A stretch of 64,000 nt of DNA, taken from Corallococcus exercitus. GTDB lineage: Bacteria > Myxococcota > Myxococcia > Myxococcales > Myxococcaceae. The stretch spans positions 2,975,281 to 3,039,280 of the forward strand of contig NZ_CP102577.1 in assembly GCF_042231735.1 (NCBI RefSeq), written 5' to 3'. The stretch's first letter is position 1. Each line of letters starts with the position of its first letter. The position numbers and the translations under genes are program-made. Shown one piece after another: positions 1-7,136 of this stretch. Below the pieces are notes generated by a model. The model saw nothing but the letters and a program-made list of their open reading frames with translations, did not search any database and was not told the DNA's origin.

Positions 1-705
1 ATGGTGACGTCGAAGAGGCCGTCGTGCGTCACCGCGTCGGGCGCGACGAACATGCCGCTGCCGAAGTAGCGCCCGTTGGCCACCGCCACCGCGGTGACGC
101 TCACCGTCTCCGGCGTGCCGCCATCCACCGTGAGGCGCACCTGGCGCTCCTGGTACTTCAGGAGGCCCTTCACGGTGCCCCACATGAAGCTCAGGTTTCC
201 GCCCAGCGCCTTGCTGCCCTGGTTCACCTCGCGGGCCACCACCGCGCTCACGCCGAACGAGGCGATGTTGGCGAAGAAGCGCGTGGCCGGGTTGCCGTCG
301 TTGTCGATGAACTCCAGCCGCCCCACGTCGAAGGGCTCCGTCTTCTCCGTGCGCAGCCGCTCCAGCGCGGACGTCAGCTCCAGGTCCCACCCGAAGGTGC
401 GGCGGAAGTCGCCGCCGGTGCCCCGGGGCAGCAGGGCCAGCGTGGCCTGGGGGTTGATGACCTGCCCGTCGCGGAAGAAGCCGTTGGTGACCTCGTTGAG
501 GGTGCCGTCGCCGCCCACCGCGACGATGCACTCATAGCCGTCGTCGATGGCCTGCCGCGCCAGACGCGCCGCATCCATGCCGCCGCTGGTGAAGCCGTGC
601 CCGAACTCACCGAGCACCTTGCCCACCTGCGCGGAGATCTCCACCCATCGCTTCCCCGTCTGCCCGTTGGCGCTGCGCGGGTTGACCACGAGGAACGTCT
701 TCATT
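1..705 (-). CDS. Diacylglycerol/lipid kinase catalytic-domain protein (YegS/BmrU-like), 5' part only; the 3' end runs off the window start
   Basis: The reverse complement of 641..705 reads MKTFLVVNPRSANGQTGKRWV, followed by GGDGTLNEV and LLPRGTGGDF, matching the DAGK_cat pattern. It is absent from the ORF track because its stop lies outside the window. Confidence 0.6.
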
Positions 706-774
706 CAGTGCCTTCTCCCTGCGAGAACGGCTTGTTTACGCAATTGTGCGCCCAGGCTCCACTCCGTGACCCAC

Positions 775-1536
775 ATGAGGGCCCCGGCGTCCGGGGTGTT
801 TGTCACCCGGACCGGTCCGTGCTGGGCTTCCCGCCCCCGTTTCCCCCCCGGACCCCGAGTGAAAGTCCACACTTCCACCGAGCAGCTCGCGCCCCACCGG
901 GAGGCCACGAGCGCCCTGGACTGGGCGCTGCCCTCGCTCCGGGCGGACCTGGCGGCGGCGGCGAGGCAGCCCTTCCGGGAGACGGGAGCCCAGGAGGACT
1001 TCCTCCTCCGCCATGACGCACCGGCCCATGAAACGCGGGGGACGGCGCGGACGGAGCGCTTCGAGCGGGCCCTGGCCCGGGTGCGGCGGCTCGCGGACGC
1101 GGGCGAGCCGCTGACCTTCCCCCGGATGGTGGAGGTCCAGTCGGAGCTGCTGGGCGGGCCCACGGGCTTCCGCACCGGGGACGCCTTCGCTTGGGGCGGC
1201 GCGCACCGGTACGCGCACGTGCCCGGCCTGGAGGCGGCCTTCCGCGAGAAGGTGGAGGCGGACGCGCGGGAGGACCGCCATCCGGTGGCGCATGCCACGC
1301 GGTTGTACCTGGACCTGTGTTTCTTCCACCCCTTCCCGGACGGCAACGCCCGCGCGGCGCGGCTGTGGCTGGAATACATGCTGCGCCGGGGCCGGCTGCC
1401 CACGCCGCCGCTGGCGCCCGTGGTGCTGTGGCCCAAGCGTCCGGGAGACGCGGTGAACTACACGCGGCTGGCAAGGCTGCTGGCCCGGAGCATCGCGGGG
1501 CCGGACGCCCCGTGCCCCAATGAGGTGTCTTCATGA
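775..1536 (+). CDS. Fic/DOC family protein
   Basis: Fic active-site motif FHPFPDGNARAARLW (HPFx[DE]GNxR) near the C-terminus. The ATG at 775 is the first one clear of the divergent lipid-kinase gene. The start is uncertain. Confidence 0.6.
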   Translation: MRAPASGVFVTRTGPCWASRPRFPPGPRVKVHTSTEQLAPHREATSALDWALPSLRADLAAAARQPFRETGAQEDFLLRHDAPAHETRGTARTERFERALARVRRLADAGEPLTFPRMVEVQSELLGGPTGFRTGDAFAWGGAHRYAHVPGLEAAFREKVEADAREDRHPVAHATRLYLDLCFFHPFPDGNARAARLWLEYMLRRGRLPTPPLAPVVLWPKRPGDAVNYTRLARLLARSIAGPDAPCPNEVSS

Positions 1537-2198
1537 ACGGTGACGCATCGGCTTTCACGTGGCGGCGCATCCGCGACAGCCTGGATGTCTATTCGCCAGA
1601 ACAACTGGCCTCCCGGCTGCGGGACGTCCTGGCCCCGTTGCGGTCCGGCGGGATCCATGTGGCCCGGCTCAAGCAGGCGCAGAACGCCGTCCAGGACCTG
1701 CTCAAGAGCGAGCTGGGGGCCTGGTACACCATGAGCGGCCTGCCCCTGGGCAACGAAGTGCTGGGGGGCTACTGCTGGTGCCACTCGTTCTTCCGCCAGA
1801 ACCCGCCGCATTACACGGCGGACGTGGATGAGAACATCCAGCTCATGTTGGCGTCGCTGGAGCGGATCCGGGCGTTTCTGTATGCGCTGGACGGCGTGTA
1901 TCAGACCGCGCGCCGTCAGCTTGAGGCAGCGGCCGACGACAAGGCCCTCCGGGCGAAGGCGCTCGCGGAAGGGCTGGTGCGGACCGTGGACCTGACGGCG
2001 GAGACGACGTCCTGCGAGGAGACCTGGTACTCGGTCGCGCAGGACGCCATGTCGTGGTGCATCGAGGCGATGGGGCTGCCCTTGTCGGACGCCACGGAGG
2101 AGCTGCTGGACGCCGCCTTCGTCTTCGAGTCCTGGGTGGCGCCTCCTCCGGAAGTCCTCCGGGCCGCGGCGGCGCGCGTGGCGGAGGCGGCCGTATGA
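1533..2198 (+). CDS. Hypothetical protein, paralog A of a tandem pair (GGYCWCH motif)
   Basis: Its ATG overlaps the Fic stop (ATGA). The 221-aa product shares WxRIRDSLDxYxPExL, GxWYTxxGLxLGNExxGGYCWCHxFFRQ, NIQLM and FESW blocks with the next ORF. Confidence 0.6.
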   Translation: MNGDASAFTWRRIRDSLDVYSPEQLASRLRDVLAPLRSGGIHVARLKQAQNAVQDLLKSELGAWYTMSGLPLGNEVLGGYCWCHSFFRQNPPHYTADVDENIQLMLASLERIRAFLYALDGVYQTARRQLEAAADDKALRAKALAEGLVRTVDLTAETTSCEETWYSVAQDAMSWCIEAMGLPLSDATEELLDAAFVFESWVAPPPEVLRAAAARVAEAAV

Positions 2199-2890
2199 CC
2201 CGGTCGGCCCTGGGCCACTGGCTGCGCATCCGCGACAGCCTGGATGGGTATGAGCCGGAGAAGCTTATCCGCCTGCTGCGCGAATACCTGGCACCGCGCG
2301 TGCCTCCGGGGACGCGCAAGCTCACGGACGAGCAGCACGACACGATGGCCAAGCACATCCAGCGGATGCTCAACCAGAACCTGGGGCCCTGGTACACGGA
2401 GACGGGCCTGTACCTGGGCAACGAGAGCTTCGGCGGCTACTGCTGGTGCCATCGCTTCTTCCGGCAGAAGCCCACGCCGAACATGAGCGTGGAATACAAC
2501 ATCCAGCTCATGATCGACGCGCTGGAGCGGTCACGCGAATGGCTGTTCAAGCTGGACGCCCACTTCCAGGCGCTGAAGCGCGACCTGCCCTCGGCCCCCG
2601 AGGACACCGACATCCGGATGCTCGCGCTGGCGGACGGCATCGTCACCACGATGAACCTCACCGTCGAGGCCACGGGCGGTGAGGAGGCCTGGTACACCTT
2701 CGCGGATGAAGCGCTGTCGTGGATGTTCGACGCCATCGGGCTGCGCCCGGGCTATCAGGCCGGCAAGCTGATGCGAAAGCTGTTCGCCTTCGAGTCCTGG
2801 CATACGCCGCTCGAGTGGGAGCTGCGCGACTCCGCGGAGAAGGTGGCGGCGGCCGTCGTGCAGGACGAGGGCCGCCGGCACACGCACTGA
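2196..2890 (+). CDS. Hypothetical protein, paralog B of a tandem pair (GGYCWCH motif)
   Basis: The internal ATG at 2196 overlaps the stop of paralog A (ATGA). MTRSALGHWLRIRDSLDGYEPEKL...GGYCWCHRFFRQ is colinear with paralog A. Confidence 0.6.
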
Positions 2891-4620: not shown

Positions 4621-4764
4621 GGGCGGACTCCGGACGAAGGAAGGGCCTGGGGAACGGCGCAGGCATGCTCCGCTCTGGTGTTGCCGTCAAGCGCTGGACC
4701 GACGCAGGCGGGCGCCGCACAACGGGGTTGAACAGGAGCGCCCGAGCAGGCACAGCAGTGGCGC

Positions 4765-5541
4765 ATGGGTCTCCTGAAGCGAGGTGGGTGGGTGGTGCTG
4801 GTGGTGCTGCTCCACGCGAGCGGCGCGGCGGCACAGATCGTCAACGTGCAGGCGCTCTTCGACGAGAAGGCGGAGCTGGGGCCGGCCGCGGCCATCGAGC
4901 TGGGCGGCGACTGGCGCACGGGCAGCACGGAGCTGTTCTCGATTCGCGGCTCGCTGGTGGGCCAGCTGCGCTCCGAGCGCGACGTCTGGCTGGGCGTCAT
5001 CCGGGGCGAGTACTCGTTCGCGAGCGGTGAGCGCATCGTCAGCCAGGTGCTGGAGCACGTGCGCTACCGGCGCGTGCTCACCGAGCGCGTGTCGGGCGAG
5101 GTCTTCGCGCAGCACGAGTACAACGAGTTCCGCCGGCTCCAGCTCCGGGCCCTGCTGGGCGCGGGCCCCCGCTTCGTGCTGCTCAACGAGGACGCCACGG
5201 GGCTCACCTTCGGCGTGGCGCTGATGCTGGAGCACGAGCGGCTGCGCAAGGACGGCGAGCCGGACGCGGGAGACCGCTACACGGATCCGCGCGTGTCCAG
5301 CTATCTGCTGGGCCGGGTGAAGCTGATGGAGAACATCCACCTGGTGGAGACGGTCTACCTCCAGCCGCGCGTCACCCGCCCCTCCGACCTGCGCGTGCTC
5401 AACGAGACGCTGTTCGCGGTGACGCCCAACCCCCGGGTCACGGTGGGCATCGGCTTCAACCTCACCTACGACAGCGCGCCGCCCGCGACGGTGCCGGCGC
5501 TGGACACGCAGCTTCGGACCACCGTGGGCGTGAAGCTCTAG
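4765..5541 (+). CDS. DUF481-like outer-membrane protein
   Basis: N-terminal signal peptide (VVLVVLLHASGAAAQ) followed by beta-rich repeats and a C-terminal aromatic-rich barrel-like tail. Confidence 0.6.
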   Translation: MGLLKRGGWVVLVVLLHASGAAAQIVNVQALFDEKAELGPAAAIELGGDWRTGSTELFSIRGSLVGQLRSERDVWLGVIRGEYSFASGERIVSQVLEHVRYRRVLTERVSGEVFAQHEYNEFRRLQLRALLGAGPRFVLLNEDATGLTFGVALMLEHERLRKDGEPDAGDRYTDPRVSSYLLGRVKLMENIHLVETVYLQPRVTRPSDLRVLNETLFAVTPNPRVTVGIGFNLTYDSAPPATVPALDTQLRTTVGVKL

Positions 5542-5556
5542 GGGTAGACTCCGGCC

Positions 5557-6408
5557 ATGGCCTCCCATCCCGTTCCCACACCCGTCGCCCTCCTCGGAGG
5601 CGGCAAGCTCGCCGAAGCCATCATCCAGGGGCTGCTGCGCTCCGGCCACATGCGCCCGTCCGAACTCCGCGTCACCGTTCGCCGGTCCGAGCGCGCCGAG
5701 GAGCTGCGCTCCCGGTACGGCGTGCACGTCTTCACGGACAACGCGCAGGCGGTGCGCGGCGCGCCGGTGGTCCTGCTGGTGGTCCGGCAGGCGCAGATGC
5801 GCGAGCTGATGGCGCTCATCTCCCCGGCGCTGGAGCCGGGGCAGACCGTGGTGTCGCTGTCCGCGGACGTGCGGCTGGCGCAGCTGGAAGCGGCGCTGCC
5901 CTCCAGCATCTCCGTCCTTCGCGCCATGCCCCACACGCCCGTGCGCGTGGGCGCGGGAGTGACGCCCCTGACGCCCGGGACGCGGGTGACGGAGACCGCG
6001 CGGCGGGCCACGGAGTCCCTCTTCGCGGCGACAGGCCGGCCGCTGTGGGTGTCCGAGGAAGCGCTCACGGTGTGCACGGGCGTGTCCGGCACGGGCCCCG
6101 CGTATGTCTTCCGGTTCGTGGAGGCGCTGGCCCAGGCCGCGATGGCGCACGGGATGGACGCGGCGGAGGCGGCGGCGCTCGCGAGGGGAACGCTCATCGG
6201 CGCGGCGAAGCTGCTGGCCGAACCCGACGCCACCACGCCGCAGCTCATCGCGGAGGTGGCGACGCCTGGAGGCATCACCGAGGCGGGGCTGAAGACGCTG
6301 GAAGCCCAGGGCCTCTCCCGCGTCGTGGGTGAGGCGGTGTCCGTCGCCATCCAGCGCACGAGGGAGCGCGCGGACGCGTCCGCCGCGGCCTACGTCACGC
6401 CGAAGTGA
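5557..6408 (+). CDS. proC: Pyrroline-5-carboxylate reductase
   Basis: N-terminal Rossmann motif LLGGGKLAEAI plus the P5CR C-terminal dimerisation region (GPAYVFRFVEALAQA...TPGGITEAGL). Confidence 0.85.
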   Translation: MASHPVPTPVALLGGGKLAEAIIQGLLRSGHMRPSELRVTVRRSERAEELRSRYGVHVFTDNAQAVRGAPVVLLVVRQAQMRELMALISPALEPGQTVVSLSADVRLAQLEAALPSSISVLRAMPHTPVRVGAGVTPLTPGTRVTETARRATESLFAATGRPLWVSEEALTVCTGVSGTGPAYVFRFVEALAQAAMAHGMDAAEAAALARGTLIGAAKLLAEPDATTPQLIAEVATPGGITEAGLKTLEAQGLSRVVGEAVSVAIQRTRERADASAAAYVTPK

Positions 6409-7073
6409 CGCTTGAGTCCCCGCTGGCCTCCAGGCGTGACGATGAGGCCGCGGGAGTCGGGCTGACGCTCCACCCACCCCAGCGAGAACACCCGGGAGGC
6501 GAGCGCCGCGCCCAGCGCTCCCGCGAGATGGTCTCGCCGCTCGCTCCAGTCCAGGCAGCGGTGGGCGAAGTGGCGGCGCTGTTCGCGCACGGGCGCCAGG
6601 TCGATGCCGAAGTCCTGGAACCAGGCCTCGCCGCTCGGGGTGAGCATGAAGGCGCGCCGGCGGAGGGACAGGTGCCCGGCCCGAAGCAGCGCGTCGGTAA
6701 TGCCCATGCCCAACCGGCCCGCCAGGTGGTCGTAGCAGTAGCGCGCGGCCCGCAGGGGCTCCGGGGTCGCTGACGCGCGGGGTCCCCGGACCGCCACGGT
6801 CATCAACGCTTCCACCATCCGCGCCACGGTGGGCGTGGCCAGGCGGAACACCTTGTTGCGTCCCTGCTTCGTGGAGCGAATCAGCCGGGCCTGCTCCAGC
6901 CGATGGAGGTGCGCGGTCGCCGTCGCGGGGCTGACGCCCGTGCCGAACGCGAGCTCCTTGGCGACGAGTGCTCGCCCCTCCATGAGCAGCTCCAGCATCC
7001 GGATCCGCGTGGCGTCCCCCACGGCTCCGGCCAGCGTCGTGAGGTCCGGCCCTGCATTCATCGTTCGGTCCAT
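6390..7073 (-). CDS. ArsR/SmtB family transcriptional regulator
   Basis: Winged HTH (IRMLELLMEGRALVAKELAFGTGVSPATATAHLHRLEQARLI). It is divergent from the P450 gene and its 3' end overlaps proC by 19 nt. Confidence 0.8.
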   Translation of the reverse strand: MDRTMNAGPDLTTLAGAVGDATRIRMLELLMEGRALVAKELAFGTGVSPATATAHLHRLEQARLIRSTKQGRNKVFRLATPTVARMVEALMTVAVRGPRASATPEPLRAARYCYDHLAGRLGMGITDALLRAGHLSLRRRAFMLTPSGEAWFQDFGIDLAPVREQRRHFAHRCLDWSERRDHLAGALGAALASRVFSLGWVERQPDSRGLIVTPGGQRGLKRHFGVT

Positions 7074-7136
7074 GGCGAACCATTTCCTAGCACACGGTCA
7101 GGGCCGAGGGAGGAGAGTGCCTGGAAGCAAGGACCG

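Follow-up and report, generated by a model that had tools for sequence, protein, structure and literature searches.

In a 64,000-nucleotide stretch of Corallococcus exercitus DNA (contig NZ_CP102577.1, positions 2,975,281 to 3,039,280; hereafter the window), we found a Fic-domain gene followed by two tandem paralogs, A and B, that are free-standing copies of a domain fused to Fic in other bacteria. From these sequence comparisons we firmly conclude that Fic-A-B represents a conserved two-domain Fic enzyme in split form, with its accessory half duplicated, because the same two domains form single polypeptides in multiple phyla, separate genes for them are almost always adjacent (in either order), the genes are translationally coupled, and the split and fused Fic domains share an active-site variant. 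It also seems reasonably likely to us that A and B are accessory subunits of this class II-like enzyme, probably gating or directing its activity. The features of the locus are as follows.

705..858, no strand assigned: divergent intergenic and leader region between a DAGK/YegS-type lipid kinase gene and the Fic gene (from the open reading frame map, the sequence and Pfam matches of the upstream gene)
775..1536, plus strand: Fic-domain gene (open reading frame 547/775-1536; GTG at 859 is the likelier start)
1533..2198, plus strand: paralog A, 221 amino acids (aa), a free-standing copy of the Fic-associated N-terminal domain (N-domain)
2195..2890, plus strand: paralog B, 231 aa, N-domain partner

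A first-pass annotation made from the DNA letters had described three co-oriented genes chained by ATGA stop/start overlaps, and the sequence confirms this chain. The first overlap, at 1533-1536, joins the start of A to the Fic stop exactly where it had been placed, but the second lies at 2195-2198 (the ATG of B at 2195-2197 and the TGA of A at 2196-2198), with B starting at 2195; the position given earlier, 2196, is where the TGA begins.

The accessory domain is fused to Fic in other bacteria

An exhaustive HMMER search with a profile of A and B against 1.84 billion representative proteins recovered 158 relatives at E <= 1e-3 and 56 at E <= 1e-10. Most of these were 200-260 aa long and about 20 were 404-550 aa, and seven of the ten long relatives that we scanned carried a Pfam Fic domain C-terminal to the region resembling A and B. 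Named sources of these fusions include Minicystis rosea, a Planctomycetota metagenome-assembled genome (MAG), many Streptomyces, and Streptacidiphilus, all labelled only as "Fic family protein", and further fusions came from metagenomes. A fusion-protein profile recovered 62 proteins, mostly more fusions, along with short Fic-only proteins from Actinobacteria. Sorted with our own hidden Markov models (HMMs), the 243 proteins collected comprised 164 with the N-domain only, 70 with the N-domain and Fic, eight with Fic only, and one with a duplicated N-domain match. The fusion proteins have no functional annotation and match no curated family beyond the Fic core.

Both halves of the fusions are homologous to the genes in the window. 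A and B align with the N-terminal half (E ~1e-65), and the window Fic aligns with the C-terminal half over the pattern FRTxDAFAxxGxxRY...YLDxCFFHPFxDGNARAARL (E 6.9e-43), the Fic-half HMM built from the fusion proteins matching window positions 973-1491. Most fused Fic domains carry HPFxDGNAR, as does the window Fic, with a minority having G or S at the Ala position. Since the partner shares ancestry with the N-terminal domain of these single-chain Fic proteins, we interpret the arrangement as a split two-domain enzyme: the single-chain form consists of an N-terminal helical domain of 210 aa and then a class II-like Fic domain with HPFxDGNAR, whereas Corallococcus divides the halves between translationally coupled genes, puts Fic first, and has two tandem copies of the accessory half.

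An AlphaFold2 (AF2) model of a natural fusion was confident, with a predicted local distance difference test score (pLDDT) of 93.4 and a predicted template modelling score (pTM) of 0.72. Its Fic half is modelled as a helix at 254-266, alpha1 at 268-286, alpha2 at 293-303 and a flap hairpin at 314-323, continuing through alpha3, alpha4, an active-site loop at 362-370 and alpha5; the hairpin is made of strands 314-316 and 321-323 across FRxxxAFAKxGRERY.

Longer proteins of another build were also present, five of them within the N-domain-only group. Four (P0060, P0063, P0076 and P0161), together with the protein at metagenomic locus L029, are 504-529 aa long and have an N-domain followed by about 300 aa, a C-terminal region with no Pfam, PADLOC or PDB match.

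Separate N-domain genes adjoin Fic genes across phyla

We compiled a census of 26 loci with a separate N-domain gene (15 from myxobacterial genomes, plus L016-L025 and L029) and found a Fic gene of the HPFxDGNAR subfamily next to it in 24 (the 15 myxobacterial loci, L018-L020, L021-L025 and L029). These pairs occur in both gene orders, often with overlaps of 1-11 nucleotides (nt), and in unrelated flanking contexts, as seen at the following loci.

L020 (sigma-70/NACHT context): Fic then N-domain, overlapping
L023-L025 (PPDK/methyltransferase context): Fic then N-domain, overlapping
L029 (metagenome contig SRR22105531_10354), 1506-3733: Fic (FVHPFEDGNARLARL) then the 512-aa N-domain-plus-unknown protein, 4-nt overlap
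L022 (Labedaea): N-domain then Fic, overlapping
L021 (Streptomyces davaonensis): N-domain then Fic, 90-nt gap

The L029 Fic is a 230-aa member of the GNAR subfamily. The two exceptions in the census were L016, a 1-kb contig, and L017, which is considered below. In the myxobacteria, Fic lies directly upstream of a partner gene in 15 of 15 loci, and with the recurrence of the pairing across phyla this supports the first-pass proposal of one operon tying Fic functionally to an unrecognised family. That annotation had also allowed for A and B turning out to belong to a housekeeping family without Fic synteny; we found no housekeeping match and strong synteny with Fic. Because no other gene is conserved around the pair across phyla, the Fic/N-domain module appears self-contained.

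Two Streptomyces loci, one split (L021:4605-6091) and one fused (L026:6392-8031), have the same adjoining trio of HATPase_c_2, HTH_31/DUF5753 and DUF397 genes, which resembles a WhiJ-type cluster. These two loci are probably orthologous, and the linkage to the trio may be clade-specific and not functional.

The Fic subunit

The identification of the first gene as Fic held up, with a match to Pfam PF02661 above the curated cut-off (E 1.7e-8, 35.6 bits against a cut-off of 24). Its active-site motif is HPFPDGNARAAR (H185-P-F-P-D-G-N-A-R-A-A-R196). The canonical AMPylation signature of Fic proteins is HxFx(D/E)GNGRxxR (PMC3667792), from which the window Fic departs by having Ala in place of the second Gly, while keeping the signature His, Phe, Asp, first Gly, Asn and both Arg; judged from this motif, its chemistry could be AMPylation or another reaction. 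Its putative flap region for target docking, FRTGDAFAWGGAHRY, is homologous to the segment that forms the hairpin in the fusion model. Among PDB sequences the best relative is FICD, with profile matches also to NmFic, IbpA and others, and the Fic core resembles class II enzymes. Entries in the structure list, each with its two listed values, were as follows.

7cb8, M. marinum Fic: 15.9, 206
4u04, FICD: 15.6, 183
3zcn, SoFic: 15.5, 191
3cuc, BT_2513: 14.8, 171

Class II Fic proteins (FICD/HYPE, SoFic, BT_2513, Coxiella Fic2 and M. marinum Fic 7cb8) nevertheless differ from the window Fic, which has Ala for the second Gly and does not carry the strict inhibitory motif (S/T)xxxE(G/N). Their accessory domains also differ, being tetratricopeptide-repeat (TPR) or winged helix-turn-helix (wHTH) domains, whereas that of the window is an unmatched 210-aa helical domain encoded by a separate, duplicated gene.

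Paralogs A and B define an accessory domain with three conserved motifs

The first-pass annotation presented A and B as paralogs of 221 and 231 aa belonging to no recognised family, and our searches agree on both counts. The two are 46% identical over 216 residues (BLASTP E 1e-62), and they contain all of the blocks quoted for them (WxRIRDSLDxYxPExL, GxWYT..GL.LGNE..GGYCWCH.FFRQ, NIQLM and FESW). We found no match for either in Pfam (2025 copy), NCBIfam 20 or PADLOC; the A/B profile returned only noise against PDB sequences (best E 0.024), and Foldseek found nothing among PDB folds at E <= 0.001 (best E 1.6, template modelling score 0.26). Compared by profile, the N-domain does not resemble the Fic domain either (hhalign probability 0.65%). 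Our N-domain HMM matches A (E 5e-65) and B (E 2.3e-65) from model position 2 to 212. AF2 models A entirely as helices, ten in all (pLDDT 85, pTM 0.85), with confidence dropping to 65-73 in the 68-97 loop bearing GNEVLGGYCWCHSFF, compared with 79-90 for the Cys-pair motif loop in the fusion model.

A and B keep all three motifs of the N-domain, which are a Cys-pair loop, T..[ED].WY and FxSW. Family-wide, the loop reads [G/S][N/D/E]E-x2-GG-x(1-5)-W-C-(x)-C-x(0-2)-[H/D]-S, the second motif, T-x-x-x-[E/D]-[A/S/T]-W-Y, sits at a helix junction, and the third constant feature is F-x-S-W-x-x-P. The A versions are G73-N-E75-V-L-G-G-Y-C81-W-C83-H84-S85, T159-S-C-E-E163-T-W165-Y166 and F198-E-S200-W201, and those of B are GNESFGGYCWCHR, TGGEEAWY and FESW. 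The GGYCWCH motif that the annotation had used to define these proteins is thus correct for A and B but does not extend to the family, whose version is a Cys pair (CxC or CC) and then H/D-S, present in about 170 of 191 N-domain loops. A Cys2-His/Asp site is possible from this pattern. A four-ligand Zn site of C81, C83, H84 and C161 was considered and rejected, as CxCH and C161 occur without correlation across relatives (23, 21, 24 and 33 in the four cells).

The same motifs contain invariant hydroxyl residues, and Fic might use A and B as its substrates, modifying conserved Ser, Thr or Tyr residues (e.g., S85, T159, Y166 and S200) to form a self-contained signalling switch. The motif loop is extended and modelled with lower confidence in A alone, as a flap-docking segment might be, and auto-modification is frequent among Fic enzymes (PMC3667792). 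It would be unusual, however, for an enzyme to be joined to its dedicated substrate in about 70 proteins, Y80 is replaced by Trp in most relatives, and the hydroxyl residues cannot be told apart from structural ones, so we consider a substrate role very unlikely.

Paralog A is the younger duplicate in a conserved core locus

Word-indexed searches of 5.8 billion proteins returned 12 clusters for B and 19 for A, all of them "hypothetical proteins" from Corallococcus or other Myxococcaceae. We analysed 15 myxobacterial loci, from a scan of one genome per species, by tblastn and with HMMs built in this analysis; these loci come from Corallococcus, Citreicoccus, Pyxidicoccus, and a Myxococcaceae MAG. 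Seven (L001-L007) have both A and B and eight (L008-L015) have one partner, and every single partner is nearer to B (65-87%; 42-53% in Citreicoccus and Pyxidicoccus) than to A (38-47%). Because all eight are nearer to B and share the same core flanks, one partner is the widespread and probably ancestral state, to which A was added by tandem duplication. By these comparisons B is the conserved and probably ancestral N-domain partner, and A is a younger, faster-evolving duplicate that arose within the Corallococcus group and is confined to Corallococcus and its close relatives.

Pairwise ratios of nonsynonymous to synonymous substitution rates (dN/dS) were 0.21-0.36 for Fic, 0.22-0.52 for B and 0.27-0.82 for A, indicating purifying selection on the locus. 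In C. coralloides KYC2213 (L005:6001-6450), A has an in-frame deletion of about 70 codons that takes out T..EE.WY and FxSW, two of its three conserved motifs, with Fic and B intact. The dN/dS values and this deletion together indicate that A is less constrained and can be lost. Separately, Corallococcus sp. AS-1-6 has a 141-aa A-type protein (P0031) that matches A over its first ~140 residues.

Wherever contigs reach far enough, the gene order is a divergent DAGK/YegS kinase gene, Fic-A-B, and convergent Hsp20, PhzF-like, DUF481 and ProC genes. The locus lies in conserved core synteny, not on a mobile island, and has been vertically inherited across three genera. This core synteny, along with dN/dS below 1, argues for a resident cellular function.

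These observations bear on the first-pass view of the Fic protein as a toxin with an odd antitoxin or immunity partner, which we set aside given the core synteny and the homology of the partner to the N-domain of single-chain Fic proteins of the same subfamily. Cast as a toxin-antitoxin system, Fic would be a growth-arresting toxin and A and B large antitoxins inhibiting it in trans in a class I-like manner, with the duplication supplying an extra or back-up antitoxin. Translational coupling would suit stoichiometric neutralisation, the partners keep T-x-x-x-E at a helix start, and in class I Fic toxins it is likewise a separate protein that puts an acid by the second Arg (PMC3667792). The window Fic also has weak PADLOC matches to Fic-containing candidate defence families (SoFic, PDC-S04 and PDC-S24; E 7e-8 to 3e-3), but these are partial and limited to the generic Fic core, with no full-length match to a defence-system model, and PADLOC returned nothing for A, B or the N-domain of the fusions. 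Known class I pairs (VbhT/VbhA, EcFicT/EcFicA and Fic-1/AntF) have a small upstream antitoxin with (S/T)xxxE(G/N); in the window, the divergent DAGK/YegS kinase gene stands upstream instead, and the partner is 221-231 aa, thus Fic-sized, lies downstream (upstream in Actinobacteria), does not have the strict motif, and sits in core synteny inherited vertically. In contrast to the build of addiction modules, about 70 proteins spread over several phyla have the Fic domain and the N-domain in a single chain. The internal deletion of A in L005 while Fic is kept would be tolerable for an antitoxin only since B remains. Taken together, we regard a toxin-antitoxin system as improbable. Polymorphic toxin/immunity pairs differ as well, having a C-terminal toxin on a large delivery protein and a downstream immunity gene in a variable locus, whereas the window Fic is an unfused protein of 225-253 aa without a delivery region in a locus that is syntenic across genera.

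Inhibitory elements and a proposed mechanism

We infer that each of the two paralogs associates non-covalently with the Fic subunit and so rebuilds the two-domain enzyme, in which A and B would serve as regulators or adaptors, gating or directing nucleotidyl transfer (AMPylation or de-AMPylation) on a protein target. The nearly family-wide loop E-x2-GG-x-W-C-x-C-H/D-S, with its Cys pair and His/Asp, is a candidate metal or redox site, and the T-x-x-x-[E/D]-x-W-Y helix start is a candidate for placing an acid against the second Fic Arg, similar to the classical inhibitory glutamate. We favour a regulatory or adaptor role because there is no canonical inhibitory motif, the conserved motifs are compact, and the L029 module has an extra 300-aa domain yet is still partnered with Fic. 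The first-pass annotation had offered substrate, regulator and immunity-like protein as roles for A and B; regulator is the most plausible of the three, and the immunity-like framing is not supported.

Fic classes I-III are defined by the inhibitory motif (S/T)xxxE(G/N) (PMC3667792). A relaxed version occurs in the partners (T159-S-C-E-E163-T in A and TGGEEA in B), and all 25 of the close homologues keep T-x-x-x-[E/D], as do 37 of 51 fusions. In a group of Streptomyces and Streptacidiphilus fusions (P0218, P0221, P0223-P0226 and P0228-P0234), the second Arg (R2) of the Fic signature is replaced by F or L (HPFDDGNARSAFL), and T-x-x-x-D-A-W-Y has become T-G-C-G-S-G-W-Y (variants TGAESGWY and TCCDGGWY), with loss of the acid; the helix before alpha1 reads DGAAED in most of them. 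These substitutions suggest that Fic in this clade may have altered chemistry or lost activity, and the joint loss of R2 and the acid is the pattern expected if R2 formed a salt bridge with the acidic residue of the N-domain, giving a hint of such a contact. We do not accept this covariation as proof of contact, as phylogeny confounds it and L021 and L022 contradict it.

A more specific version of this mechanism, which we put forward tentatively and think unlikely, would make the N-domain a fourth mode of Fic control beyond the three classes of inhibitory helix (alpha-inh). The N-domain would be a helical sensor of about 210 aa with a new fold, holding its T-x-x-x-[E/D]-x-W-Y acid on the second Arg and using its Cys-pair/His loop for metal or redox sensing, such that stress would free Fic; splitting and duplication in Corallococcus would then provide two differently tuned inputs.

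Several observations weigh against A and B being gating or directing subunits of a split enzyme, or against parts of the proposed mechanism. At L017 (2388-3098, metagenome 3300063042, P0035), a relative of A and B (E 2e-48) has no Fic neighbour within 2.3 kb upstream and 5 kb downstream, and in its loop GGYDWRLGFF replaces GGYCWCHSFF, leaving no Cys pair. In the wider family, the first Cys of CWCH is restricted to particular clades, as is C161, and about 20 members are without any Cys pair. The pTM of 0.72 makes the domain orientation in the fusion model only moderately certain, and Ala in place of the second Gly could mean a chemistry other than AMPylation, as discussed for deviant motifs (PMC3667792). 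The joint loss of R2 and the acid is confined to one clade and counts as a single event, and the split actinobacterial loci L021 and L022 have lost R2 and keep the Asp. The inhibitory helix that the first-pass annotation had proposed to look for did not appear, the strict (S/T)xxxE(G/N) being absent from Fic, A, B, 25 homologues and the fusions. Lastly, Fic has a T70-G-A-Q-E74-D of its own, which opens the helix preceding alpha1 and lies 111 residues ahead of the catalytic His. This would be the position of the class II inhibitory helix, and inhibition could act there in cis with the partner doing something else, though the element ends in D, not G or N, and is conserved only in the clade with Fic-first gene order. 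As a separate observation, L017 is the only clear case of an N-domain without Fic.

If T70GAQE74D does inhibit Fic in cis, as in class II, A and B might instead be target adaptors that recruit different targets to the flap, with the duplication widening the range of targets. The class II-like Fic core and the position of [T/N]xxxE ~111 residues before the catalytic His fit this arrangement, as does the divergence of A and B to 46% identity with their core motifs kept, and the L029 N-domain, with its extra 300-aa C-terminal region, still follows Fic as a linking adaptor would. However, most fusions (DGHxxx), L029 and the split actinobacterial forms do not have the cis Glu, and the most conserved N-domain residues form a compact motif set with no variable binding surface. 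We view a pure target-adaptor role as quite unlikely, and continue to favour A and B as accessory subunits that gate or direct a split Fic enzyme.

Distribution and significance of the Fic/N-domain subfamily

Among the closest known systems are the "Fic family proteins" of Streptomyces, Minicystis and Planctomycetota (about 404-550 aa), both halves of which are homologous to the window genes and most of which have HPFxDGNAR; they differ from the window in being one polypeptide with the N-domain first, as opposed to three genes with Fic first and two N-domain copies. Searches of Pfam (2025 copy), NCBIfam 20, PADLOC, the PDB and the literature yielded no description of the N-domain or of this Fic subfamily, and literature searches on such Fic proteins in myxobacteria, or on M. 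marinum Fic, gave nothing relevant. The N-domain is a new accessory domain or subunit of a well-known enzyme superfamily and overturns nothing established.

The subfamily is widespread in Myxococcota, Actinomycetota, Planctomycetota and many metagenomes, and its companion 210-aa domain is without a curated family, solved structure or fold match. About 10% of Fic proteins with the canonical signature fall outside the three inhibition classes (PMC3667792), which raises the matter of how Fic enzymes beyond the known classes are controlled, and the N-domain may be an undescribed control mode. The natural split in Corallococcus offers the enzyme and two diverged modules as separate proteins, making binding, gating and target choice testable by mixing them. 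In addition, more than 150 clusters of "hypothetical proteins" could be annotated as Fic-associated subunits.

Gene starts and coding quality

The DAGK/YegS-type lipid kinase gene (identified by Pfam) upstream of Fic is on the minus strand with its start at 704, and the region between it and Fic, 705-858, is the presumed promoter region of the operon. A promoter and terminator scan of the locus found no sigma-70-type consensus, a scan that is uninformative for a myxobacterium of 70% G+C. Fic, A and B look like genuine genes by G+C at third codon positions (GC3), which is 0.89-0.93 in the three (0.90 in Fic) against 0.70 G+C for the window, and a recorded C. exercitus protein matches paralog A with 100% identity.

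The segment 775-858, covering the first 28 codons of Fic, is less coding-like (GC3 0.79, and 0.82 at second positions, GC2). Fic orthologues align only from about residues 21-36, and these first 28 codons are unconserved in several of them. Because of the weaker coding signal and the later onset of conservation, GTG at 859 is plausible as the true Fic start, giving 225 aa compared with 253 aa from the ATG at 775.

Window positions 1-64000 gave neither tRNA nor tmRNA genes, nor any Rfam family reaching the gathering threshold. Long antisense open reading frames overlap genes in places, such as the one at 4687-7083 on the minus strand (798 aa), and are the usual artefact of DNA with 70% G+C.

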